NCBI GenBank assembly: GCA_045106935.1
Contig: JBGCFN010000005.1
Span: 17,732 to 81,731 of the forward strand
Length of the DNA: 64,000 nt
DNA from: Gammaproteobacteria bacterium
GTDB lineage: Bacteria > Pseudomonadota > Gammaproteobacteria > UBA4575
Reading direction: 5' to 3'
Both the position numbers and the translations under genes were made by a program. Shown here piece by piece: positions 3,959 to 33,593 of this stretch (the first letter of the stretch is position 1; every line of letters begins with the position of its first letter). The notes under the pieces are model-generated. The model was not told the origin of the DNA. It saw only the letters and a program-made list of their open reading frames with translations, and searched no databases.

Positions 3959-4321
3959 GTGACAAATAAGATCTTAGTTGTTGATGATTCGCCAACAGAT
4001 TTGCAAAACATCAAATCGATTGTGAGTAATGCTGGACATACTGTTATTACTGCATCATCTGGAAAAGAAGCAGTTATGAAAGCAAAAGAGATGCATCCCG
4101 ACATGATTTTCATGGATGTAATCATGGACAATACTGATGGGTTTGAAGCATGTCGCGAAATCATATCTGATCGTGATACAAAAAATATTCCTGTCGTATT
4201 TGTAAGTTCGAAATGTCAAAAAGCTGATCGTGTATGGGCGGAGCTACAAGGAGGTAAAGCGTTAGTTGGTAAGCCTTATACTGAAGATGAAATCGTCAGC
4301 CAGATTAATCAGTTTAGTTAG
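3959..4321 (+). CDS. pilH: single-domain CheY-like response regulator (PilH-like)
   Basis: 120 aa, KILVVDDSPTDL...MIFMDVIMDNTDGFE...VVFVSSK...VGKP. Confidence 0.75.
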   Translation: MTNKILVVDDSPTDLQNIKSIVSNAGHTVITASSGKEAVMKAKEMHPDMIFMDVIMDNTDGFEACREIISDRDTKNIPVVFVSSKCQKADRVWAELQGGKALVGKPYTEDEIVSQINQFS

Positions 4322-4332
4322 AAGACGCTGTT

Positions 4333-4875
4333 ATGGAGAATGCCGATCTTTCAAAAAATGCTTTCCTATCAATGGGGAAGAAGACGTTAGACGAATCTTT
4401 AGTTATTCCATTGGATGGTTATGATGAAGATCTAGATGCTGAGCGAGGCAAGAAACGATTTTATGGGTTTAAATTACATAACATTCAACTGTTACTAGAA
4501 TCGGATATACGTAGTGAGGTGATCAATGACGCAGTCATTACGCCGTTACCTTTTATGCCTTCATTTATTACAGGTTTATGCAATGTCAGAGGAAATTTAG
4601 TACCTGTATATGATATGCATGAAAAATATAATTTAGAAAAGCCTGCCTCAGATTTAACTGATAAAAAAATATTGGTATTGGATGAAAATGAACATATGGC
4701 AGGTATAGAAATACATGACATGGTGGTTCCGCTTGAATTTGATGAGCAGGATATTCAGAGGGAAACTTTCTCTGATAATGACCAGTTGAATCAATGTATT
4801 TCATATAGTTACCAATTAAATGGAAGTGCTTGGTTCGGTTTAGACTATAAAAAGCTATTTAATATAGATGATTAG
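4333..4875 (+). CDS. pilI: CheW-like coupling protein (PilI-like)
   Basis: 180 aa with a CheW-domain pattern (GLCNVRGNLVPVYD...ILVLDENEHMAGIEIHD). It sits between the CheY-like gene and the MCP. Confidence 0.7.
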   Translation: MENADLSKNAFLSMGKKTLDESLVIPLDGYDEDLDAERGKKRFYGFKLHNIQLLLESDIRSEVINDAVITPLPFMPSFITGLCNVRGNLVPVYDMHEKYNLEKPASDLTDKKILVLDENEHMAGIEIHDMVVPLEFDEQDIQRETFSDNDQLNQCISYSYQLNGSAWFGLDYKKLFNIDD

Positions 4876-7220: not shown

Positions 7221-10200
7221 ATGCAAAAGATAGATCAAGAGAAGCTATCGGAATTCACAAGCGAGCTGTCAACATTTCAAACTGAGGCATCTAAAACTGC
7301 CTCAATTGATGTGTATGATCGTTTTACGATTAGCAAATTAGAAGATCACGTAGTTGATCTTTGTCAGTTATCTATAGATGCTTCTCATTCAGGCCTCCAA
7401 TATTTGTGTGAGCGTCTGCGAGATAATATTCGTGACCATTTTATTACGGGCACAAATATATCTAATGATGAATTTTCGTTAATGACAGAATGGAAAAGCT
7501 TGGTCAAAGCGTATTTGATCGATAACGAAAATGAACAAATTGTTAATGCGTTAGCAAGAAATCTATCGAAATCTGCTTGGACATATCCTTTGAATTCAAA
7601 TGATACAGAAGATGTGATCTCTGTTTTATTGGGCCGATCAACTTTGAATGAAAATGATGATTTTACATCTAGCCAGGAGCCTAGCAATGAAGAGGTAAGC
7701 TCTTTTGATGCATTAATGGAAGAGTCAAATACTAGTCTTGCTGATGTTTTTGAGTCTCTTGGTGAAGATGATAATGAAGATGAGAGTGAGATTAGTCCTT
7801 TTGAGGATGACGAATCTTCGATTGCAGCATTCTTTGAAGAAGATGATTCCTTTGAAGCGTCTAAGATAATAGAAAATGAACTAAATAGTCGCCTGAATGA
7901 GAATCACGCAATAACATCTGATAACAATGAGCTGCCTGCAGTGGGTGACCCGGTGGCTGATTCATTCGCTAATGATCTGTCTTCAGAAAACTCTCCCATT
8001 GAAAAAGTTGAAGTCTCTAAGCAAGAGCTTGAAGACATTGAGAAAAGTGTTCCCGAGACAGTCGCAGACGAGTTGTTTGTCGCCGATGAGCATGCACATG
8101 AGTCTGACTACAATGAAGAATTCGATAAAGATTTATCAAGTGCAGAAGAGGCGTTAGCCGAGACTGCCGATTCTTCCATTGAAAAAGTTGAAGTGTCTAA
8201 GCAAGAGCTTGAAGATATTGAGAAAAGTACTGCTATGTCTGTGGCAGATGAGTTGTATGTTGCAGATAAAAGCGACAATGAATTATCTTTTGATTCTCCG
8301 GATTCATCAATTGATGAAATTGAAGAAATCGATCAAGTACATGAAGATGACAGTGAAGTTGTTGTAGGGCTAAATACTGAAGAAATCAATGTTAATGATA
8401 TCAGTGATGATAATCATGAAAAAAATCAGTCTGCTGAAGATGAGCCTGAGACTGTTTATATGCAGCCTGTTAATCAAAAACCTGAAGCTTCTAGAAGTGT
8501 TATTGAATCATACATGGGTGCTATCTCCAATAAAGGTAACAATACCTCTGAAAAAGAAAAACAACCCGAGATAGAAGTATCGTCTAAGGATGATAATCAG
8601 GAAGATATTGTTGCTCGAGTTGAAGAATCATCAGTAGAAGAAGATAGTAATTCTGAATTGTCACAGCAAAAGCCATCAGAAGGAAATCTGTTAAACGCTC
8701 AAGCTGTTGAGCCAGTGAGTACCAAGACTGAAGCGCCTAGAAGTATTATTGAAGCATATGTTGGTGTTATTGCCGATAAGATTCGTGGCAATAAACCAAA
8801 AGAGCTCGAGAGAGCGCTGATACAAGATGCGCCTAAGCCTGTACCTATACAGAAGTTGGAGCCGGTTGATAGTATCTTACTAAAATATCCAGATTGGAGC
8901 GAAGAGCAGAAAGAACTTCTGAGTTTAATTCTTTCTGAAGTGCATGATGTCATTGACCAGCAAGATGAGGTATTAAGTGTTCTGCATCAAGAGAAGATTG
9001 TTGAGCAAGATGTGTTGGATATGATTGCACTGTATTCTGAGCAAATTGAGCGCATGGGATCAGCAGCTGAAATGGTAGGCTTGGATGCTCTCCAAAAATT
9101 ATGCGAATTAATTGATTTTCATTTTGGTGATTTAGAGAAATCAAGCATTGAAATGATTGTCAGCTCTGAGCAGCGAATTAGGAAATGGCCATTTATTGTC
9201 TATGAGTATCTAAAAAATATTCAAAATGAAAAATCACATCAAGAAGCGATTGACTATATATCAGATGATGATTGGGCTAGAACAATACGAGAAGACATCA
9301 AATCAGATTTAAAAGAAGCGTTTGCTCATTCAACAATTCACATAGAGAAAACAGAAGAAGATCGACGTAATACTGAAGCTTCCCCGCAAGATGTTGATAT
9401 TTCTGTTCCAGAAGATGTGCAAGCGGAATTGCTTGATGGGCTATTACAAGAATTACCTCGTCAAACAGAAGAGTTTTCTGAAGCGATACAACAGTTAATT
9501 AAAAGTGACTATATAAATCAATTAGAAGTTGCTCAACGTATCGCGCATACAATTAAAGGGGCAGCTAACACGGTGGGTATTGTCGGTGTAGCAACCCTGA
9601 CGCATCATCTTGAAGATATTCTCCAGGCGTTATCTAAAGTGCAAGCCAAGCCTAGTGGTGATCTTCATGCTGGGTTGATTGACGCATCTGATTGTTTGGA
9701 ACAAATGACAGAATGTTTGTTAGGTCAAGGCGACCAGCCGGAAGACGCACTTCAAATAATGCAGGTGGTTCTTGATTGGGCAAACTATATTGATGAATTT
9801 GGTGTGCCAGAAGATGATGCTGACAAGTCAGTGCCTGCGACTAATGTGGAACAATCTGTTCAAGATCAGAAAGTTGATGTTGAAGAAAATAAAAGCAAAG
9901 CAAAACCATCTCAGGATGCTTCTTTGCGTGTTCCAGCAAATATGATTGATGAATTGATTAATCAGTCGGGCGAAAGCATTATTGCTACGTCTCAAATGCA
10001 TGAGAATGTAGATAAATTGTTAGCGAGTATGCGTGACATTAAGAAAAATAAAGATAACGTATATTCTTTGTCTCAACAATTAGAGCACCTCATAGATGTT
10101 CAAGGCGCAAGTGATAAGTTTTCAAATAATAAAGAAGATGAAAAATTTGATTCATTAGAGCTGGACCAATATAACGAATTGCACACATATTCTAGGCGGT

Positions 10201-11720
10201 TAATTGAAGCGACTGCAGACTCGGTTGAGTTGATCAGTGAGTTAGAGGATCGTTTATATTCATTAGAGTCTGTTATTGCAGATCAAGAAAGAGCTCAAAA
10301 AGATAATCAATACGCAATATTAAAAACTCGGATGATGCCAGTTGAGTCTGTTGTTGCGAGACTTAAGCGTGGCGTTCGTCAAGCAGCAAAAATTAGCGGA
10401 AAATCTGTTGAGCTAGATGTGCTGGGTGCTGACATATTATTGGATAGTAAGATTCTAAATAATCTAATTGATCCACTTATGCATTTACTAAGAAATGCTG
10501 TTGATCATGGGATTGAATCCGATGATATTCGAGAAGCTGCAGGTAAATCATTGCCTGGAAAAATAAAATTATCGTTTACCCAAGTAGGTGAAAAGCTAGA
10601 AATAAATTGCCAAGACGACGGTAAAGGATTAAACGTACAAGATATTAAAGCGCGTGCCATTGATAAAGGCATGATTCTCAATGAGCAAGAACTAACTGAT
10701 GAAGAAATACATCAGATCATTATGCAACATGGTTTCTCTACGCGTGATGAAGTGACTCAGCTTTCAGGGCGTGGCGTAGGCATGGATGTGGTTTATTCTA
10801 ATATTAAAGACCTGAATGGTTCGGTTAAAATTAGTTCGGAATGGGGCAATGGTATGGATGTTGAGCTGTCGTTGCCAGTATCCTTGTTAACAGCACATGC
10901 CTTATTAATTCCTACAGTATCAGGGTCTATGGCTATCTCTGCCAGTGCGATTGAGGAAATTCTTCACGTTAATATCAATGACCTTAAAGAATCAGAGCAG
11001 GGCTTGACTATCCAGGTGGAGGATGAAGAATATCCAGCCGTACACCTTGAGCAACTATTAGAAATGCGTTTATCTGCTTCTAAGGATAAAGAAAGCTACA
11101 CGGCGTTATTAGTTAACGAATTTGGCAGACAGAAGAAAGTTGTATTAGTGAGTGAAATACAAAGTGTTCGCGATATTATTATTAAACCGCTTAGTCAGTA
11201 TTTGCCTAAAGTAGTTGGCTTGGTTGGTGCAACAGTACTTGGAAACGGTGACATTGCCCCAGTTGTTGATGTGGCTGATCTATTGTCTAAACAATCTAAT
11301 ATTGTTGGTAAGCTTGATATTGAACATGCTGGAGAAATAGAAGAGATACATCAGGCCAGTGTGCTAGTAGTGGAAGACTCAATCAGTACTCGCCGGTCTC
11401 TTGCTGAGTTTATGCAAGATTTAAATTACAAAGTGCTGACTGCTAAAGATGGCGTAGAAGCTATTGAAATTATGCGTGACCATTCACCAACGTTATTGTT
11501 GACTGATCTAGAAATGCCTCGCATGAATGGGCTAGAGTTAACTTCTTATGTTCGTTCACACGATGAGACAAAAGATATTCCCATTATTATGCTAACGTCT
11601 CGCACAACAGAAAAGCATCGTAAAGAAGCTAAGTCTATTGGCGTCAATGAATATCTAGCTAAGCCATTTGTTGAAGATTTATTACTAGAAAAAGTACAAA
11701 GTCTAGCCAGTCATAAATAA
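7221..11720 (+). CDS. chpA: ChpA-like multidomain hybrid histidine kinase (CheA family: Hpt, acidic repeat linker, HATPase, CheW-like, C-terminal receiver)
   Basis: 1499 aa. Hpt motif AQRIAHTIKGAANTVGI, an HATPase_c region (LMHLLRNAVDHGIES...GRGVGMDVV), a CheW-like region and a C-terminal REC (VLVVEDSISTRR...LLLTDLEMPRMNGLEL...IIMLTSR...LAKPF). Confidence 0.85.
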   Translation: MQKIDQEKLSEFTSELSTFQTEASKTASIDVYDRFTISKLEDHVVDLCQLSIDASHSGLQYLCERLRDNIRDHFITGTNISNDEFSLMTEWKSLVKAYLIDNENEQIVNALARNLSKSAWTYPLNSNDTEDVISVLLGRSTLNENDDFTSSQEPSNEEVSSFDALMEESNTSLADVFESLGEDDNEDESEISPFEDDESSIAAFFEEDDSFEASKIIENELNSRLNENHAITSDNNELPAVGDPVADSFANDLSSENSPIEKVEVSKQELEDIEKSVPETVADELFVADEHAHESDYNEEFDKDLSSAEEALAETADSSIEKVEVSKQELEDIEKSTAMSVADELYVADKSDNELSFDSPDSSIDEIEEIDQVHEDDSEVVVGLNTEEINVNDISDDNHEKNQSAEDEPETVYMQPVNQKPEASRSVIESYMGAISNKGNNTSEKEKQPEIEVSSKDDNQEDIVARVEESSVEEDSNSELSQQKPSEGNLLNAQAVEPVSTKTEAPRSIIEAYVGVIADKIRGNKPKELERALIQDAPKPVPIQKLEPVDSILLKYPDWSEEQKELLSLILSEVHDVIDQQDEVLSVLHQEKIVEQDVLDMIALYSEQIERMGSAAEMVGLDALQKLCELIDFHFGDLEKSSIEMIVSSEQRIRKWPFIVYEYLKNIQNEKSHQEAIDYISDDDWARTIREDIKSDLKEAFAHSTIHIEKTEEDRRNTEASPQDVDISVPEDVQAELLDGLLQELPRQTEEFSEAIQQLIKSDYINQLEVAQRIAHTIKGAANTVGIVGVATLTHHLEDILQALSKVQAKPSGDLHAGLIDASDCLEQMTECLLGQGDQPEDALQIMQVVLDWANYIDEFGVPEDDADKSVPATNVEQSVQDQKVDVEENKSKAKPSQDASLRVPANMIDELINQSGESIIATSQMHENVDKLLASMRDIKKNKDNVYSLSQQLEHLIDVQGASDKFSNNKEDEKFDSLELDQYNELHTYSRRLIEATADSVELISELEDRLYSLESVIADQERAQKDNQYAILKTRMMPVESVVARLKRGVRQAAKISGKSVELDVLGADILLDSKILNNLIDPLMHLLRNAVDHGIESDDIREAAGKSLPGKIKLSFTQVGEKLEINCQDDGKGLNVQDIKARAIDKGMILNEQELTDEEIHQIIMQHGFSTRDEVTQLSGRGVGMDVVYSNIKDLNGSVKISSEWGNGMDVELSLPVSLLTAHALLIPTVSGSMAISASAIEEILHVNINDLKESEQGLTIQVEDEEYPAVHLEQLLEMRLSASKDKESYTALLVNEFGRQKKVVLVSEIQSVRDIIIKPLSQYLPKVVGLVGATVLGNGDIAPVVDVADLLSKQSNIVGKLDIEHAGEIEEIHQASVLVVEDSISTRRSLAEFMQDLNYKVLTAKDGVEAIEIMRDHSPTLLLTDLEMPRMNGLELTSYVRSHDETKDIPIIMLTSRTTEKHRKEAKSIGVNEYLAKPFVEDLLLEKVQSLASHK
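7994..8270 (+). repeat. two roughly 95-bp direct repeats, about 85-90% identical, 180 bp apart, inside the chpA acidic linker (encoding SIEKVEVSKQELEDIEKS...VADEL.VAD)
   Basis: Units at about 7994-8090 and 8174-8270 align base for base (ccattgaaaaagttgaagt[c/g]tctaagcaagagcttgaaga[c/t]attgagaaaagt...). A second diverged pair lies at about 8480-8540 and 8730-8790, encoding EA(S/P)RS(V/I)IE(S/A)Y.G.I. Confidence 0.8.
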
Positions 11721-25696: not shown

Positions 25697-27619
25697 ATGC
25701 AAAGTAAGATTCGTGATGATTCTGATGCACTGAGAGAATTTTATTCTATTGCTTTATCCAAAGATCTGACATTTGTAGATCAGGCTAAAGAAGTGCTACG
25801 CCTAGGTTGCGAATATCTAGGTCTGCATTGTGGAATAATTTCATACGTCGAAGGCGAGCGTTACACTATACTGCATGTGTATACGGCCACTGATGAGTAT
25901 GAAATACAAGGTGGTGATGTATTTGAATTAGGGCTGACTTATTGCAAATTCACTTTAGAGCAGAAAAAAGCAATCGGTTTTCATCATGCGGCGCTCACAG
26001 ATATCGCTAAGCACCCTTCCTATGAAGCACTGAAATTAGAATCTTATCTCGGTGCTCCTACGTTTTTGAATGATACATTATTCGGTACAGTCAATTTTAC
26101 CAGTATCAATCCTCGTGCTCATGAATTCACAGAGAGCGAAATTTACTATGCTCAACTAATTTCAGAATGGATTTCAAAAGAGCTTGATAGAAATTATCGT
26201 CAAGTACCAAGTTATCAGCAACATGTCACTTTGACCTCACGGTTAGAGACCTCACCATTAGCCATTATAGAAATGACGCCTGCATTTGAAGTGACTAAAT
26301 GGAGTGATACTGCAGAATTAATTTTGGGCTGGCGCGAAGAACAAGTACTGAATAAGGCACCCAAAGATTGGCCAGTGGTTGGGAAAGATGACTTGGTCAA
26401 TCTAATTTCAATGCTAGATAATTTGCAAAACTGTAACGATCAAGGGTGTGCATTTTCCTGTGACCTACGAAAAAATAACGGCCAATTAATTTCAACGGAA
26501 TGGATGCTCTCATGTACATTCTCTGAAAAAGAAAAGTGTACAAAAGCCCAGGCGCATGTGTTGGATATTACCGATAGAGTCAATGCAGAGAATGAATTGT
26601 TAAGAAAAAGTGCTTTATACCTAGACTTATTTCAGAACGCGCCAGATATGTATATGTCACTTGATCAGACGGGCAATATTATTTCTATCAATAACCAGTG
26701 TAAAAATATATTGGGGTATGAGGTTGTTGAACTTATTGGGACGCCTTTCTGGAGTTTGATAGATAAAAAAGATCTTAGACGAATTCGTCGATTGATTGAT
26801 GTCGCTTTTCTAGGAGATGTTGAAGAGCTAGAAATGGAAGCGAATATTCTTAAAAAGGATAATTCAATCATTAGAGCGCATCAAAGAATTAGAATTATTC
26901 AAGTCGGAAAGGGTGCACCACATGAACTAAGAATAATTCTAAGGGATATTACAGAGCGCACAAGAGGGCAAATATATCGGCTAGACCATATGAGGCACCA
27001 GCGTGATGAAATCACCACAGAAGTTCAGCATCGAATAAAAAACAGTTTGCAAGCAGTGATTGGTATGTTGACCGTTAGTGTCGATGCGCATCCAGATTTG
27101 AAGCCCATACTGACAAACTCAATCGCCCAAATAAATACCATCTCAATCGTTAACGGTTTGATCATGGATGGTAAGCAAGATGTAAATGTATTGAATTTAT
27201 TGACTAACTTATTTGATGCATCATCAAAATTATTCAATTGTGAAATACGCTTAAAGCAAACTAGTAAAGATCAAGCTGTCCAGATGTTGGTTGCTGACGA
27301 AGTCATTTCTGTCTCACTGGTCATTACGGAGTTATTAATTAATGCATTAAAGCACCACGCGCAAAATAGTAATAATGAGGATTATGTCTCTGCTAGCGTT
27401 GAAATTGATGACGATGAAGTTAATCTGAGTATCATCAATACCTTTGATCAATCGATACCTTCAAAAGAGCATGAATCACACCTTGGGCTGATGATGATTG
27501 ATGCTTTGTTGCCTCCGCAGGGCGCAGTGCTTCAAGCTTCTAATGAGCATGGAGTCTATGCAGCCAAATTGACTATAAAAGAACCAGTAATAATAAATGG
27601 TAATAATGATACATGGTAA
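25697..27619 (+). CDS. cytoplasmic GAF/PAS sensor histidine kinase of the HWE/HisKA_2 type (PdtaS-like)
   Basis: No TMs. HWE-type H-box EVQHRIKNSLQAVIGML and an ATPase region ELLINALKHHAQN. The partner REC-ANTAR gene follows. Confidence 0.65.
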   Translation: MQSKIRDDSDALREFYSIALSKDLTFVDQAKEVLRLGCEYLGLHCGIISYVEGERYTILHVYTATDEYEIQGGDVFELGLTYCKFTLEQKKAIGFHHAALTDIAKHPSYEALKLESYLGAPTFLNDTLFGTVNFTSINPRAHEFTESEIYYAQLISEWISKELDRNYRQVPSYQQHVTLTSRLETSPLAIIEMTPAFEVTKWSDTAELILGWREEQVLNKAPKDWPVVGKDDLVNLISMLDNLQNCNDQGCAFSCDLRKNNGQLISTEWMLSCTFSEKEKCTKAQAHVLDITDRVNAENELLRKSALYLDLFQNAPDMYMSLDQTGNIISINNQCKNILGYEVVELIGTPFWSLIDKKDLRRIRRLIDVAFLGDVEELEMEANILKKDNSIIRAHQRIRIIQVGKGAPHELRIILRDITERTRGQIYRLDHMRHQRDEITTEVQHRIKNSLQAVIGMLTVSVDAHPDLKPILTNSIAQINTISIVNGLIMDGKQDVNVLNLLTNLFDASSKLFNCEIRLKQTSKDQAVQMLVADEVISVSLVITELLINALKHHAQNSNNEDYVSASVEIDDDEVNLSIINTFDQSIPSKEHESHLGLMMIDALLPPQGAVLQASNEHGVYAAKLTIKEPVIINGNNDTW

Positions 27620-27792
27620 ATATTAAAATTAGACAATAAAATTGTTTAATATATTTATATATGAATAATCTAATTTAGATTTCATATTAGACTTTCATTA
27701 TAGTAAGAGAATCTTATTGCGCTGAGTAATGTCTTGCTGTTATAACTGTTAAGATAATAAAAAAATATAAATTTGCTGGGGGGCGGTTTTAT

Positions 27793-28437
27793 ATGTCACA
27801 GCCGAAAATTTTATTGGCAGATGATGATCGTGTCATTCGGGTTACATTTGCAAATGGCCTGCGTATGCGGAATTTTGACGTTATTGAAGCTGAAAACGGT
27901 GAGAAAGCCATTGAACTGGGGTGTGAACACCAGCCTGAGCTCGCTATCATGGATTTCCGCTTGCCAGACATCTCTGGCGCTGAAGTCGCAACTCAGCTGC
28001 AAGAACAAGCCAATGTCTCTAGTATTTTCTTATCTGCCTATGCTGAGCAAGAGTTTGTTGAAAAAGCCACACAAGCAGGTGCATTAGGTTATTTAATCAA
28101 ACCAATCGATTTTGATCATGCGTTACCCACCATCAATTCTGCATTGGAACGATCAAAAGAAATCAAACAACTCAAAGATACTGAGAGTCAACTGAACACA
28201 GCGTTGGAACAGGGTAGAGAGACCAGTGTCGCGATTGGAATTCTCATGCAGGAGTACCACATCACTTCTGAGCAGGCATTCGATATGATTCGAGGCCAAG
28301 CACGCTCGCAACGACGCAAAGTAGCCAATGTGGCAACAGACTTAGTTCAGGCAGTGAATAACTTAAATGGGTTCACCACCGAAATGCGTGATAGAAATGA
28401 AGAATTTCTAAAACAAATGAAGCGCCCTAAGTCATAA
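27793..28437 (+). CDS. REC-ANTAR response regulator (AmiR/NasT/EutV/PdtaR-type RNA-binding antiterminator)
   Basis: REC (ILLADDDRVIR...MDFRLPDISG...IFLSAYAE...IKP) plus a C-terminal ANTAR domain (ALEQGRETSVAIGILMQEYHITSEQAFDMIRGQARSQRRKVANVATDLV). Confidence 0.8.
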   Translation: MSQPKILLADDDRVIRVTFANGLRMRNFDVIEAENGEKAIELGCEHQPELAIMDFRLPDISGAEVATQLQEQANVSSIFLSAYAEQEFVEKATQAGALGYLIKPIDFDHALPTINSALERSKEIKQLKDTESQLNTALEQGRETSVAIGILMQEYHITSEQAFDMIRGQARSQRRKVANVATDLVQAVNNLNGFTTEMRDRNEEFLKQMKRPKS

Positions 28438-28609
28438 TTACCTGACAACAAAGTGCAATAAATTCAAGTAACGTATTAATTATATTAGTTAAATATGCAT
28501 CTACAGAATCATTCTAAAAATTCTCTTTAGTGCTTGATTTATATCAATAATAAGTCTATAAATGTACCTACAGCTTTGTGGGTATATAAATAAAATAAAC
28601 TTACCCACC

Positions 28610-28645
28610 GAGGACCCAAACCAACTAGTCCTCATTTTCATTCCA
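28610..28645 (+). promoter_or_regulatory. leader hairpin (GAGGAC-12 nt-GUCCUC) followed by a U-rich tract, a candidate attenuator within the 490-nt leader upstream of 28930
   Basis: Direct reading: gaggacccaaaccaactagtcctc then attttcatt. Confidence 0.3.
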
Positions 28646-28929
28646 ATCAATGGCTATAACCTTTGCCATCAGCAATAAATCTTTAGGCCTCGTTCCTGCC
28701 TAATTCAAATCAAAAGAATTGATTTTGTGTATTCGCAAACAATTTTGCGTATATGCGGAAAATTTCTGGAGAGCGACTTAAAGATTTTTCATCCTAAATA
28801 ATTCTTTGAGTAATTCACCAGAAATGTACATCCCAGGGAAGAGCCGCAGCATCTAACAATGTTGGGGGAACATCTACACGGACAGTAGATACCAATGTTG
28901 TTAAACAAAGTTTTCATGGGAGGAGTTTT

Positions 28930-30546
28930 ATGAAACTTAAATTTAGTACAAGTGGATTGTTGCTACTCGCGTTGGGCCTATCTTTTAGCTCAGTGCAAGC
29001 AAGTGACAGCTACGATTGTGATTATGATTTGCGTGATGGAGCGTTTTTCTACAACGCAAATAACCCAGCCACCGACGGTAATGGAAATGCACAGCAAAAT
29101 GAGCTGCTCGTATTCCTTCGAAACGCTGACGGTACCCTAGATCCTAATATTCAAACGCATCGTGTTAATTCTGGTGGTTATGGTAACCAAGCAGGTATTG
29201 TGACTTCTGGTCAAAATGCTGTTTACCACACAGGTGAAGGTGATGATCAATACGTGTTTATGATCAATGCTGGATTCAATCCTGTGGCAAAACCAAGACG
29301 CCTTGGTTATGGCAAGCACTGGAATAAAAAACGACTTGATAGAAACGGTAGTGTTTCAGCATTTAAAGTCAACAAGTGTGATGTTGTTAGAACAAGTGTT
29401 CGATCAACTCGTGGTCAAGAGCCTCGTGCAGTCACTCGTCATGGAAACTTAGTCTATGTCGTGAATGCTGGTTCTGGTGAAGTTGAGTTCAACGGATGCC
29501 CAGGCTTACCTGAAGGATTTTTACCTCCAACAGGACAAGTTTGTGGAGAACGTGCAGAAATTTCAGAAGATAATAAAGATCCACAAAGTATCACTGGCTA
29601 TAGATTCAGAAATGGTAAATTACGCTATATCCGTGGTTCTAATATAAACTCAGCTGATGCTGATGGTGATCCAGTACAGCTTTCATTCATCAATGAAGGT
29701 CGTCAACTTCTAGTCGCTAACCGTAATACTTTCTTTGCGTTAGGTGATGGAACTGAGGCTGATGAAATTGAAGTTCACAATATCGACAAAAGAGGTCGTC
29801 CAAGTTACCCAGTTGTTAGTACAACCACTGGTAATGATAACTTTGGTTTCTCTGTCTATCCACGTGATGGTGATGACTACAATGATTGCGTCATGATGAC
29901 TCATGGTAGTTTCCAACAACGTGATCAAGGTGGTGCGTCAGTATTCACTATTAATAAACGTGCTGAAAAAGTACGTATCATTCCAAATAAGGCTGATGGC
30001 GGATCTGACACGTGTTGGACTGCGATTTCTGCAAAGACAAACACGCTATACACATCAGCGTTTTTTGATTCAGAAATTTCTATTCGTGGAATCAATCCTG
30101 AAACATGTAACCTAACTGATGGTGGACCACCAGTCGTTGTTGTTGATGGTGTACCACAATTCACAGGACCATTAGCAAACATCAGACATAGAGTGTCTAG
30201 CTCTGGTGCTAATTTTGATGGCACACCTCGTGGTGATGACATCTCACTTAGAACTGACCAAAGAGACTTCTTGTATGAAGCAGGTGGACTTGATCTTGCT
30301 GTATCTAAAGCAGGTGAGGAAGAGTACTTGTATGCGATTTGGGCACCTGTGCCTTTCTACGTAGATCGTGATGGTGATGGAAACTTCTTGTACCCGAATA
30401 CAACTCAAATCACAGTATTCCGTGTTATTCAGGACTGTGATGGTGTTGATTCAATGTACGAAGATGGTTGCCGTCCAGGTGATCTGGAGTTAGTACAGCG
30501 TGTACCTGGTTTACCAGGAAGTGGTTACGGAGCTGCGGCTCAGTAA
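28930..30546 (+). CDS. secreted protein, probably a 7-bladed beta-propeller (lactonase-like fold); function unknown
   Basis: Signal peptide MKLKFSTSGLLLLALGLSFSSVQA. Repeated propeller-like strands (LVYVVNAGSGEV, LLVANRNTFF, LYTSAFFDSEISIRGI, YLYAIWAPVPFYVD). Confidence 0.45.
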   Translation: MKLKFSTSGLLLLALGLSFSSVQASDSYDCDYDLRDGAFFYNANNPATDGNGNAQQNELLVFLRNADGTLDPNIQTHRVNSGGYGNQAGIVTSGQNAVYHTGEGDDQYVFMINAGFNPVAKPRRLGYGKHWNKKRLDRNGSVSAFKVNKCDVVRTSVRSTRGQEPRAVTRHGNLVYVVNAGSGEVEFNGCPGLPEGFLPPTGQVCGERAEISEDNKDPQSITGYRFRNGKLRYIRGSNINSADADGDPVQLSFINEGRQLLVANRNTFFALGDGTEADEIEVHNIDKRGRPSYPVVSTTTGNDNFGFSVYPRDGDDYNDCVMMTHGSFQQRDQGGASVFTINKRAEKVRIIPNKADGGSDTCWTAISAKTNTLYTSAFFDSEISIRGINPETCNLTDGGPPVVVVDGVPQFTGPLANIRHRVSSSGANFDGTPRGDDISLRTDQRDFLYEAGGLDLAVSKAGEEEYLYAIWAPVPFYVDRDGDGNFLYPNTTQITVFRVIQDCDGVDSMYEDGCRPGDLELVQRVPGLPGSGYGAAAQ

Positions 30547-30589
30547 GTCACTGTTAAAGTATACTTTTTAAGCTATACTGATGGATAAT

Positions 30590-30635
30590 CGCAGGCAGAT
30601 AAAGAACACATCTACCTGCGGTTCTCTTCAAAATT
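30590..30635 (+). terminator. 11-bp stem hairpin with one mismatch (cgcaggcagat/atctacctgcg) followed by a T-rich tract. Either a partial terminator or a regulatory hairpin between the two ANTAR-downstream genes.
   Basis: Direct reading of 30590-30620 plus gttctcttcaaaattttg. Confidence 0.4.
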
Positions 30636-30724
30636 TTGTCAGTGTTTTTTTATTAATAGAGCGCCAAAACCATTCGCACTCTAGAAAGAACGACTGACAA
30701 ATCCTCGGCTGTTAATCTTTTTCT

Positions 30725-32467
30725 TTGCCTAATCAACGCATGGAGAAGAAACGTTTAGCCAATTTTAAAATTGGGAGATATAAAGTGAAACAGCACTTTA
30801 CTAGTAAAAAGCAACCAAACTGGTTGGTATTAGCCCTAAGCGCGACACTAGTTGGCGCATCATCATTTGCATCAGCAAGTGATCCAGGTGCAGATATTGA
30901 CTATTCACATTTAACACCACAACTCATTAAAGAGACTGACGGAACTGCGTTTAGCTCAGACTTTTTTAATCGAAATGGTAATGGTCCGGCATTAGATGCA
31001 AACATCACTGAAGATGATTTCAGTAAATTAAGCTTGACTGAAATTCGTCAAATCGGTGTGCGTATGTATACCACGCCTTTCCGTCGTGCTGATGGATATG
31101 GTGACGGTCCTGGTATTAATACCGCTATCCTAGATGACGGAACACCAGCGCTTAACATTCCTGATCTAGGCCCTACAGGACGCCCAACCTTACAAGGTAA
31201 CGGCACATGGTTACGAATGAACGGTTTAGATTCGCAAACATGTTTAGAGTGTCATGGTGTTGTTGATAACTCTGTTGTTCCTGCGCAGTTAGGTGTCGGT
31301 GGTCAAGCCGGTATTGGTGGTTCACCATTCTTCAGATCAAAAACTGCTGATATAGATGACTCAGGTAATCAGTCATTTGGTGGTGGTGATCTTACAGGTG
31401 CAGGCATCGGTGATGCGATTGGTATTGCAGCATTTGACGGACGTTCAATTAACCCGCCAGCCAACTTCGGTTTAGGTGGTGTTGAGTTAGTTGGTCAAGA
31501 AATCACTGAGCGTTTACAAAAAATTCGTGAACGTGCTGGTGGTACTTGTGAAGAAGGTGGTAGAGATGTGAAGCTAAGAGCGAAAGGCATCGACTTCGGA
31601 ACTAACTGTAACCCTGAAGGTGTGGATGGCGACTTAGAAATTCGTCCATTTGGCCGTAAAGGTGAATTTGCGACTGTTCGTGGGTTTGATGAAGGTGCGT
31701 TAGCATTCCATCAAGGTATGCAAGATGCAACAATCTTTGAAGGTGATGCTGATGGTGATGGTGTCTCAGATGAGATTACTAGTGCGCAAGCACGTGCATT
31801 CCACGTATTCATGACAACACAAGAGCGTCCAGTTCAGAAGAAGCGAACAAGACAAGCTCGTCGTGGCTTTAGATTGTTTAATGACGTGGGTTGTGCAGGA
31901 TGTCATGTTCCATTCTTAGATACTGAATCTCCAGTACTAGAATATACTGACCCAGAAAGCGAAGAAGTTTACTTCAGTGCGGATCTTTCCAAAGGTGTAT
32001 CAAACTTTGAGAAAAATCGTTGGGGTGGTATTCGTGTTCGTGCACACTCAGATTACAAGCGTCACAACATGGGCTACCGTTTGAAAGAAACAGCTCATTT
32101 CTTAAACGATCCTGAAGGCGAAAATGCATGTCAAGATGAAGTGGCTGGATCAGAAATCGACAACTGTAACTTTATTACAATGAAGTTATGGGGTGTTGCT
32201 GACTCTGCACCGTACTTGCATGATGGTCGTGCGTTATCATTATTTGAAGCCGTAGCTTTACACGGTGGAGAAGCGCAAGATGTTCGTGATCGTTTCTTGA
32301 AACTTGGCAAAAATGGACAAAATGCAATCTTTGCTTACTTGGGAACACTGAAGCATCCTGAAGATCCAAACCAGGATGTAGCTAACCAAGTTCAGTTAGA
32401 TCCAATTGCAAGAAGCCAGGATCAACGTCCTATACCTAGAAGAAAGTACGATTACTATAAGCACTAA
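30725..32467 (+). CDS. secreted di-haem cytochrome c peroxidase-like / DUF1111-type oxidoreductase (likely true start ATG 30740)
   Basis: Two CxxCH motifs (CLECH, CAGCH), a signal peptide, and a C-terminal LWGVADSAPYLHDGRALSLFEAVALHGGEA motif of DUF1111-type di-haem proteins. Confidence 0.65.
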   Translation: MPNQRMEKKRLANFKIGRYKVKQHFTSKKQPNWLVLALSATLVGASSFASASDPGADIDYSHLTPQLIKETDGTAFSSDFFNRNGNGPALDANITEDDFSKLSLTEIRQIGVRMYTTPFRRADGYGDGPGINTAILDDGTPALNIPDLGPTGRPTLQGNGTWLRMNGLDSQTCLECHGVVDNSVVPAQLGVGGQAGIGGSPFFRSKTADIDDSGNQSFGGGDLTGAGIGDAIGIAAFDGRSINPPANFGLGGVELVGQEITERLQKIRERAGGTCEEGGRDVKLRAKGIDFGTNCNPEGVDGDLEIRPFGRKGEFATVRGFDEGALAFHQGMQDATIFEGDADGDGVSDEITSAQARAFHVFMTTQERPVQKKRTRQARRGFRLFNDVGCAGCHVPFLDTESPVLEYTDPESEEVYFSADLSKGVSNFEKNRWGGIRVRAHSDYKRHNMGYRLKETAHFLNDPEGENACQDEVAGSEIDNCNFITMKLWGVADSAPYLHDGRALSLFEAVALHGGEAQDVRDRFLKLGKNGQNAIFAYLGTLKHPEDPNQDVANQVQLDPIARSQDQRPIPRRKYDYYKH

Positions 32468-32492
32468 AAGCTAATAGTAATAAGTTAGATCA

Positions 32493-32530
32493 AAGCCGAG
32501 AAGCTAGTATTATTTCTCGGCTTTTTTTTT
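32493..32530 (+). terminator. rho-independent terminator
   Basis: Perfect 10-bp stem aagccgagaa/ttctcggctt, an 11-nt loop, then T9. Confidence 0.8.
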
Positions 32531-32555
32531 ATAAAATAGTTTATAATGATCAATA

Positions 32556-33233
32556 ATGAAAAAAAATATTTATATAGTCAGTGCGTTAATATTGATTGTA
32601 GCTGCGATAGCTAGTTTTTACGCTTATACCCACCACTGTAAACATCAGCTGCGTGAAGTTGACCGCTATGCATTACCCACCGTTGTATCATTCATGAAAG
32701 CATTGAGTGATTGGGAACTAGAAAAGCTCAGACCTTACTTATCAGATGAATATATTAACGCGATATCAGAAGAAGAATGGGCGTCTGTGTTAGAAGAACT
32801 ATCTGTGTTAGGTGAATTGAAATCATTTGCGCGACCTAACTTTGTCTCTCACACACCGTATTTGAGATATAAATTATGGCCTTCTGCGGTTGACATGTAT
32901 TCCGTTGCCAGTGAATTTGAAAACGATAATGCGGTTGTTAGAATATTTTTTGATAACAACTGTGCAAAATTAAAAATCAGTTCATTTGTTGTGACATCAA
33001 AATCAATCGTAACAACCCCAGATTATTTAGAAGAAATAGAAAACGACAGCAAAGAAGATGAAATATTAGATAATTTGAATGAAGACGAGTTGGATGAAGA
33101 TTTAGATTCGCTATATGAGCAAAATCAAAAAGAGACGCCTATCGATGAGCTCGAAGAAAATGTCAGTAGCGAGATCAAAGAAAAAGTAACTGAGAAAAAA
33201 ACTAAACAGCATGGAAAGGCATATAGGTATTAA
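32556..33233 (+). CDS. hypothetical membrane-anchored protein with acidic C-terminal region
   Basis: N-terminal TM and an E/D-rich tail. No recognisable domain. Confidence 0.4.
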   Translation: MKKNIYIVSALILIVAAIASFYAYTHHCKHQLREVDRYALPTVVSFMKALSDWELEKLRPYLSDEYINAISEEEWASVLEELSVLGELKSFARPNFVSHTPYLRYKLWPSAVDMYSVASEFENDNAVVRIFFDNNCAKLKISSFVVTSKSIVTTPDYLEEIENDSKEDEILDNLNEDELDEDLDSLYEQNQKETPIDELEENVSSEIKEKVTEKKTKQHGKAYRY

Positions 33234-33236
33234 GCA

Positions 33237-33593
33237 ATGATCAGAATGTTTAAAATTATCATTAACCATAAGATATTGCTGATGATGCTTTTGATTTTGG
33301 TGTCAGGGTGCCATGATTCTGGCGAACCATGGCGAATTACGGTTGGCTTAGATAAACCGAAAAAATTGGTATTTATAGATGGTGATGAAGCACGTGAAGT
33401 ACGGGTCTGTCTAGATAAGCAAGGTGGATCAGGATACCCAACACGAGTGGTAGCTAGATTTGATGACAAAAAATACACGCCAATGTTACCTGGCCAATGT
33501 ATGTTTTTTGTGGGTAAACATGTGTCAGTATCTTTTCCTAATCCATCATCAGGAAAATTTGCTGAAGGTACCTATACTATAATTCAAAAATAA
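33237..33593 (+). CDS. small hypothetical lipoprotein
   Basis: Lipobox LVSGC, 118 aa. Confidence 0.4.
   Translation: MIRMFKIIINHKILLMMLLILVSGCHDSGEPWRITVGLDKPKKLVFIDGDEAREVRVCLDKQGGSGYPTRVVARFDDKKYTPMLPGQCMFFVGKHVSVSFPNPSSGKFAEGTYTIIQK

Follow-up and report, generated by a model that had tools for sequence, protein, structure and literature searches.

A conserved structured leader RNA lies between an ANTAR two-component system and a secreted beta-propeller gene in uncultured marine Gammaproteobacteria

We analysed a 64,000-nt stretch of DNA from an uncultured marine gammaproteobacterium (hereafter the window), with a focus on the unit at positions 25697-32530, in which genes for a two-component system with an ANTAR-type regulator precede genes for two secreted proteins. 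On the + strand, this unit comprises genes for a sensor kinase (25697..27619) and a REC-ANTAR response regulator (27793..28437), a noncoding gap, and genes for a secreted beta-propeller (28930..30546) and a secreted di-haem oxidoreductase (DHOR; 30785..32467), followed by an intrinsic terminator. Genome and metagenome scans together with look-ups yielded 26 usable related loci, all from uncultured marine Gammaproteobacteria. The order type II secretion system (T2SS) secretin, kinase, REC-ANTAR regulator, gap of 440-690 nt and propeller is found in all 25 loci having upstream DNA, and it is invariant across propeller identities ranging from 46% to 90%. The locus is specific to this clade and lies directly downstream of a complete T2SS gene cluster. 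The observation of this arrangement is confirmed, and its interpretation is partly supported, as detailed below.

The gap between the regulator and propeller genes spans 492 nt (28438-28929). It harbours a sigma-70-type promoter, TTGATT-17 nt-TATAAA (28534..28562, + strand; -35 box at 28534-28539, -10 box at 28557-28562), which is present at a fixed distance from the propeller ATG in 25 of the 26 related loci. The motif scan had missed it because its -10 rule requires a final T, and this box ends in A. Transcription would thus start near 28569. The preliminary description had read the whole gap as an untranslated leader of about 490 nt; the noncoding gap does have that size, but the leader measures about 360 nt (28570..28929), because the conserved promoter sits inside the gap. 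The open reading frames (ORFs) of the gap are short and not conserved, and indels in the alignments are not multiples of three. A small ORF or a small RNA was discarded as an explanation for the gap on account of these short, unconserved ORFs and of the lack of a terminator before the ATG, and a CsrB-like sponge because the GGA count is merely about twice that expected by chance. Upstream of the promoter, two boxes are conserved in both of the leader types described below, GTAAC(G/T)YAYTAAT at 28468-28481, about 50-55 nt 5' of the -35 box, and TCTAAAAA at 28513-28520; they could serve as an UP element or be bound by a DNA-binding regulator. The region 28250-28750 has a GC skew of -0.13, whereas that of every flanking gene is positive, and the 5' half of the leader is C-rich. 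Rho-utilisation sites are typically rich in C and poor in G.

The leader is a real, new and conserved structured RNA. Its minimum free energy is -98 kcal/mol, with a z-score of -5.4 relative to shuffled sequences, and nhmmer searches found a single copy per locus and no extra copies. A permissive Rfam search (E <= 10) over 27500-33000 gave no match to the leader and returned only a sub-threshold SdsR-like match on the terminator. The leaders fall into two types, group 1 (n=14, including that of the window) and group 2 (n=11), which share a homologous 5' domain, as shown by nhmmer cross-hits, and have unlike 3' regions of about 120 nt. In group 1, 84.9% of cells are paired, compared with 33-46% in slid controls, and there are 20 compensatory pairs versus 10.9 +/- 2.1 in shuffles, none of the 500 shuffles reaching that number. 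The corresponding values for group 2 are 92.9% paired and 15 compensatory pairs versus 5.5 +/- 1.7, again with 0/500 shuffles as high.

Two hairpins are common to both leader types. The first, GAGGAC-CCAAACCAACUA-GUCCUC (28610..28633), carries a conserved loop CYAAAC..; it was considered and rejected as a terminator, as its AUUUUCAUU tail is not conserved and a U-tail follows it in some relatives alone. The second, UUAGGC-CUCGUUCCU-GCCUAA (28683..28703), is 97% paired with three compensatory pairs, and within it CCUGCCU shows partial complementarity to the Shine-Dalgarno (SD) sequence of the propeller gene, so that it might conceivably act as an anti-SD. Further 3', five of the six pairs of a long hairpin, AUUUCUGG...CCAGAAAU (28762..28825), show compensatory changes; the second leader type has GAAAUUUAGUU...AACUAAAUUUC in its place. 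The 3' domain (28831..28921) is closed by a helix between UCCCAGGGAA (28831-28840) and UUUUCAUGGGA (28911-28921), according to RNAalifold and to the single-sequence fold, and it encloses an inner hairpin, CCGCAGCAU-CUAACA-AUGUUGGGG (28844..28867). In both the consensus and the single-sequence folds of group 1, the closing helix buries the first G's of the SD. This helix is 93.6% paired; one of its pairs alternates between AU, CG and UG, and the rest are too conserved to covary. A pseudoknot between TAACA (28855-28859) and UGUUA (28899-28903) is also conceivable.

The sensor kinase, whose orthologues are found 5' of the regulator in all loci, is composed of GAF, PAS and HisKA_2 domains and a weakly matching HATPase domain. 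GAF, PAS and HisKA_2 (32.6 bits) all score over their Pfam cutoffs. It had been described as a cytoplasmic GAF/PAS kinase of the HWE type. As no transmembrane segments are predicted over its sequence, the kinase is cytoplasmic, and the first part of this assignment holds; since the HWE_HK score of 18.1 bits is under the cutoff of 22.8, the kinase is of the HisKA_2 type, not strictly HWE. The spacer between the kinase and regulator genes (27620-27792 in the window) is 140-250 nt long in most loci and shorter in a few group-2 loci. In group 1, it contains a promoter-like sequence, TTGCAA/TTGCGC-17-TATAAC, at about 27722-27750 of the window.

The response regulator is a bona fide member of the EutV/PdtaR/NasT type, consisting of a REC domain (PF00072, 2.6e-23), a coiled coil and a C-terminal three-helix ANTAR domain (PF03861, 2e-13, profile positions 2-54 of 54). 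It aligns end to end with EutV (6WSH, 3e-29) and with Rv1626/PdtaR (1S8N, 5e-27). These matches, together with the soluble kinase of PdtaS architecture, bear out the earlier assignment to a PdtaS/PdtaR-like system. The phospho-acceptor Asp (...AIMDFRLP) corresponds to Asp54 of EutV (...VLMDIQMP). Among the residues with which EutV contacts RNA, R168 and R175 are kept and Y164F, R177K and K143R are conservative, whereas R142G, K147V, K149I, E160S, M172R and N173S are altered. The same substitutions are widespread in the proteobacterial NasT-like subfamily; the idea that they might signal an altered RNA specificity was dropped, since family-wide substitutions are uninformative in this respect. 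The regulator is 100% identical to a protein named 'ANTAR domain-containing response regulator' in a gammaproteobacterial metagenome-assembled genome (MAG) of NCBI. Its nearest neighbours outside the clade share 42-53% identity with it and are called NasT, AmiR/NasT or PdtaR in their sources.

The propeller, a protein of 538 residues with the signal peptide MKLKFSTSGLLLLALGLSFSSVQA, belongs to a very small family. We found 58 members among 5.8e9 proteins; in a search of 1.84e9, 15 representatives reached E <= 1e-30. It weakly matches the Lactonase profile and has a seven-bladed fold resembling those of 6PGL and PpgL, in agreement with its initial description as a secreted, lactonase-like beta-propeller. 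In one relative (L004:9258-11617), the gene 3' of the propeller gene starts with a DHOR-type signal peptide and an acidic, Gly-rich linker and continues as a second propeller paralogue, 52% identical to that of the window; a propeller seems to have taken the place of the catalytic part of DHOR.

The propeller and DHOR genes are separated by a structured spacer (30547..30784, z = -4.4), which includes GCAGGCAGAU...AUCUACCUGC and in which we found no terminator-like site and no clear U-tract on the + strand. The listed ORF of DHOR begins at a TTG codon (30725); the likely start is the GTG at 30785, which lies behind GGGAGA and is followed by a signal peptide. DHOR contains two CXXCH haem motifs (CLECH and CAGCH) and matches PF06537 with 37.3 bits, for a cutoff of 22, which corroborates its identification as a secreted, DUF1111-type di-haem protein. 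It is an unexceptional representative of a large family: we collected 1239 relatives, its homologues carry PF06537, and an identical protein (100%) is named 'di-heme oxidoredictase family protein' in a gammaproteobacterial MAG of NCBI. Weak matches of its profile extend to CCP, MauG and the gamma chains of hydrazine synthase. In a structure model, the N-terminal half reached a predicted local distance difference test (pLDDT) score of 63.6, too poor for a fold search. In the group-2 DHOR proteins (L009:3860-5872 and others), the signal peptide is followed by some 110 additional residues of acidic, low-complexity sequence, which the protein of the window lacks.

DHOR does not belong to the unit in every locus. 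Its gene is missing from loci L004, L006, L024 and L026 and frameshifted in L027, and the constant unit is thus made up of the regulator pair, the leader and the propeller, with DHOR as an accessory. The preliminary description had proposed a propeller plus di-haem unit, of which the propeller part stands in all 25 loci and the di-haem part does not in these five. A DUF3887-like protein and a 118-residue lipoprotein (LVSGC lipobox), encoded at 32556-33593, are gained or lost together with DHOR (L024, L026, L004, L006); they, more than the propeller, may be its partners. The pairing of DHOR with a propeller had also been called unusual, because DUF1111 proteins are usually found with imelysin/EfeO. 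Imelysin is absent here, but two sampled DHOR relatives from outside the clade have no imelysin neighbour either, so that this view is only mildly supported. Imelysins are reported to have such peroxidases as companions nearly always, and not the other way round (PMC3143127). The unit ends, as first described, with a strong intrinsic terminator (32492..32530, + strand), whose 12-bp hairpin (32492-32524, -17.3 kcal/mol) is followed by a U-run.

The T2SS cluster directly upstream of the kinase gene codes for GspA, B, E, F, G, H, I, J, K, L, M, C and D, with GspD matching TIGR02517 at 458 bits (cutoff 351). Both secreted proteins have a predicted Sec signal peptide and are genetically linked to this full gsp cluster, and we consider the propeller, along with DHOR where it is present, to be probably cargo of the adjacent T2SS. 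A chemosensory cluster is found further upstream. Just 5' of the T2SS genes, it encodes a 1499-residue CheA-type hybrid kinase (7221-11720; Hpt, dimerisation domain, HATPase, CheW, REC), which forms a Chp/Wsp-like chemosensory system with a methyl-accepting chemotaxis protein and receivers. On the 3' side of the terminator come the genes for the membrane-anchored DUF3887-like protein, the small lipoprotein, a MASE1-PAS kinase and a stand-alone receiver. The whole region of about 30 kb is syntenic across the clade.

ANTAR target RNAs consist of a pair of hairpins, each of 3 bp or more, whose hexaloops have A at the first and G at the fourth position (A1/G4); a linker of 5-12 nt separates them, and the second is in competition with a terminator (PMC3369931). 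We scanned both strands of the window for strict dual A1/G4 hexaloops and obtained 20 matches for 18.6 +/- 3.9 expected, almost all of them in coding DNA and none in the leader; a scan of all loci gave no enrichment either, and the + strand of 28438-28929 is also devoid of terminator-like sites. By the yardstick that the preliminary description had set for itself, the lack of a dual hairpin or of a terminator, these results essentially refute classical antitermination in the window. What the leader does contain is a near-miss pair at 28890..28925, UACC-AAUGUU-GUUA and UUUC-AUGGGA-GGAG, of which the strict scan detects the second hairpin alone, as the first has a C.U mismatch beside its closing pair. 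Read as such a pair, the two would be separated by 8 nt (28904-28911), for a published range of about 5-12 nt. The loop and 3' arm of the AUGGGA hairpin coincide with the SD (28918-28925). Only in L003, L027 and L028 does the pair take the canonical form (GAC-AACGUU-GUU and GUUUC-AUGGGA-GGAGU). Hairpins with A1/G4 hexaloops occur at -14 in 12/14 group-1 leaders, and an AAUGUU hexaloop hairpin occurs at -27 in six of the eleven group-2 leaders. A single hexaloop is now regarded as the minimal ANTAR site (PMC8934654), and, according to a preprint (bioRxiv 10.1101/660928), mycobacterial ANTAR RNAs cover start sites and repress translation. The regulator may therefore act on translation of the propeller gene.

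The best-conserved hairpin of the 3' domain points to another protein. At 28872..28890, AUCUAC-ACGGACA-GUAGAU (CUACACGGACAGU) fits the consensus RUACARGGAUGU obtained for CsrA by SELEX, in which ACA and GGA are 100% conserved and GGA lies in a short hairpin loop (PMC7652899). Both ACA and GGA are invariant in the 14 group-1 leaders, the stem being variable, and the L003 hairpin, AUACAGGGAUGU, matches the consensus at 12/12 positions. The motif TACANGGAN1-2GT is expected by chance 0.64 times per 128 kb. Its sole other occurrence in the window is at 4245-4257 (+), 88 nt 5' of ORF 4333-4875 in the chemosensory cluster. A second GGA is part of the SD, GGGAGGAG (28918-28925), about 38 nt 3' of the hairpin, a spacing that falls in the CsrA bridging range, and a third A-N-GGA is found at about -93 in 11 of the 14 group-1 leaders. 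The three elements reproduce the layout of glgC, for which a model of CsrA bridging to the SD site has been described (PMC7652899). The loop of the hairpin comprises 7 nt in the window, a size acceptable to CsrA and not to ANTAR proteins (PMC7652899, PMC8934654); a 6-nt A1/G4 loop is limited to the L003 subclade. As a trans-acting factor, CsrA is a better fit to this hairpin than the ANTAR regulator.

Taken together, these data suggest that the propeller gene is controlled post-transcriptionally through the SD-proximal 3' domain; the adjacent ANTAR regulator would probably provide one input and a CsrA-type protein would likely provide another. To this reading we assign a probability of roughly 40%. 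Control would most likely be exerted at translation initiation, given the lack of an antiterminator site and of a terminator, the CsrA-type hairpin and the buried SD. The propeller gene would be transcribed from its own conserved promoter into the structured leader of ~360 nt, and its expression would be set after the start of transcription, mainly at translation initiation and not by a terminator/antiterminator switch. The phosphorylated REC-ANTAR dimer would most likely bind the SD-proximal A1/G4-type hairpins with their AAUGUU and AUGGGA loops (28890-28925) and might thereby remodel or occupy the ribosome-binding region, much as the preprint reports for mycobacterial ANTAR RNAs that cover start sites. 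The other input would probably come from a CsrA/Rsm-type protein that bridges the GGA-rich SD and the ACA-N-GGA hairpin (28872-28890). DHOR is a passenger that the unit can do without; transcription would continue through its gene as far as the strong terminator.

Several observations weigh against this proposal. Its link between the ANTAR regulator and the leader is plausible but unproven. Because the whole region of about 30 kb is syntenic, adjacency is weak evidence for regulation, and the proximity of the regulator and propeller genes may reflect plain vertical inheritance. A GAF-PAS-HisKA_2 kinase likewise partners an outgroup regulator (53% identical), where the neighbour genes are unrelated, and the regulator of the window may be transcribed from its own promoter. 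As for the RNA, the leader of the window has neither a canonical dual hexaloop nor a terminator, and the mismatch of its first candidate hairpin falls within the three closing base pairs that EutV contacts (PMC8934654). Conservation of the AUGGGA hairpin cannot be told apart from that of the SD as such, and two pairings that are more stable compete with this hairpin; group-2 leaders lack the second hairpin. A..G.. hexaloops do number 32 near the start codon for 12 expected, among relatives that are not independent; as control A..A.. hexaloops are similarly enriched, we did not rely on this enrichment as support for ANTAR binding.

The most serious alternative, which we nevertheless regard as rather unlikely, is that CsrA/RsmA controls translation initiation at the 3' domain in the manner of glgC or psl, the ANTAR pair being only a syntenic neighbour that regulates something else. 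A CsrA dimer on the high-affinity ACA-N-GGA hairpin, and perhaps on CAGGGAA (28835-28841), would bridge to the GGA-rich SD and block the ribosome. The rare motif, its invariant ACA and GGA, the additional GGAs and the 7-nt loop are all in its favour. However, this evidence is a motif match and not binding, group-2 leaders have no upstream hairpin and a GGA in the SD only, and the invariant adjacency of the ANTAR pair is left unexplained. A tblastn search with Escherichia coli CsrA returned nothing significant in about 390 kb of flanking DNA, which is uninformative as regards csrA elsewhere in these genomes.

A bolder version of the two-input reading is that the leader represents a new class of cis-regulatory RNA, in which the REC-ANTAR protein acts on translation through non-canonical, SD-embedded hairpins in a 3' domain shared with CsrA, such that the signal of the kinase and the global Csr state would jointly gate T2SS cargo. 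We deem this version improbable. Even less credible is an autonomous RNA, such as a ligand-sensing riboswitch, a thermosensor or a Rho-dependent attenuator, that acts without either protein. The size of the leader, its many helices, its conserved loop and junction sequences (the CYAAAC loop and AAUGUUGUUAAC), the SD placed in the closing helix, the rut-like 5' half with its C-richness and negative GC skew, and the absence of matches to known Rfam families would agree with it; nevertheless, the 3' domain differs wholly between the two leader types, which is unusual for an aptamer, no conserved core resembling a ligand pocket can be defined, and the leader is confined to one gene in one clade.

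Classical antitermination, as put forward in the preliminary description, in which the regulator would stabilise a dual hexaloop against a leader terminator and thereby let RNA polymerase read into the propeller gene, is also very doubtful: the regulator is a genuine REC-ANTAR protein, a covarying group-2 hairpin (4/6 pairs compensatory) followed by AUUUUGUAAUU in about 6/11 leaders looks terminator-like, and in L006 A1/G4 hexaloops follow one another, with that hairpin carrying one, but a scan of 28438-28929 found nothing canonical, dual hexaloops are not enriched in the window, Rfam gave no match, no terminator-like element exists in the leader of the window or in any of group 1, and the U-tail of the GAGGAC hairpin is restricted to some relatives. 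The group-2 pairing that would compete with that hairpin in an X-Y-X' antiterminator/terminator switch was rejected, being no better than slid controls (72.7% paired versus 63-67%), with 203/500 shuffles as high.

ANTAR regulators are widespread, and to our knowledge, apart from the eut, ami and nas operons and lipid genes of mycobacteria, very few of their targets have been identified. Searches for targets lean on the dual-hexaloop rule. In the present loci, a single long and conserved leader that does not obey this rule is accompanied without exception by a genuine ANTAR pair, and the locus would either widen the recognised repertoire of ANTAR targets or show that adjacency misleads. The high-affinity CsrA hairpin, with its hexaloop A-R-G-G-A-U, also conforms to the A1/G4 rule, a warning for motif-based ANTAR searches. 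Lastly, the tiny propeller family, confined to uncultured marine Gammaproteobacteria and probably under tight regulation beside a T2SS, is a candidate for biochemical study.

Like the DHOR/DUF1111 proteins of imelysin iron-uptake operons (PA4370-4373), DHOR has two CXXCH motifs, PF06537 and a signal peptide; unlike them, it has no imelysin/EfeO neighbour and is surrounded by the propeller, the DUF3887-like protein and the small lipoprotein. The propeller shares a seven-bladed fold with the 6-phosphogluconolactonase, PpgL and carboxy-muconate lactonizing propellers (PF10282), in a comparison made at the level of fold and overall identity. It differs from them by an identity of 13-15%, by about 200 extra residues present as insertions, and by many invariant Cys residues and the motifs HGSFQQRxQ, TTGNDNFGF and FNGCPGLP.

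CsrA-repressed leaders, such as those of E. coli glgC and pgaA and Pseudomonas aeruginosa psl, similarly have an ACA-N-GGA hairpin just 5' of a GGA-containing SD, which here lies in a weak helix. In contrast, the present leader greatly exceeds these in length, about 250 nt of its conserved structure being additional, its second type has no upstream site, and CsrA is a putative factor here. The closest relatives of the regulator outside the clade carry NasT-type names, as in the NasS/NasT and NasR systems of Proteobacteria, but its partner is a histidine kinase and not a NasS-type sensor, and no nitrate or nitrite genes are found nearby.

The system is most akin in its proteins to PdtaS/PdtaR of Mycobacterium tuberculosis (Rv3220c/Rv1626), with a soluble GAF-PAS-HisKA_2 kinase and a regulator that spans 1S8N over its full length, and to EutW/EutV of Enterococcus faecalis, whose REC-coiled coil-ANTAR regulator (6WSH) it also matches over its full length. 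A further likeness to PdtaS/PdtaR is that the possible target site covers the start region, as the preprint describes for mycobacterial ANTAR RNAs. It departs from both systems in that its leader lacks a canonical dual hexaloop and a terminator, and from EutV by the changes R142G, K147V, K149I, E160S and M172R at RNA-contact positions, which are family-wide and not specific to this locus. In addition, the neighbouring target in these marine bacteria would be a secreted protein encoded beside a T2SS and not a catabolic operon.

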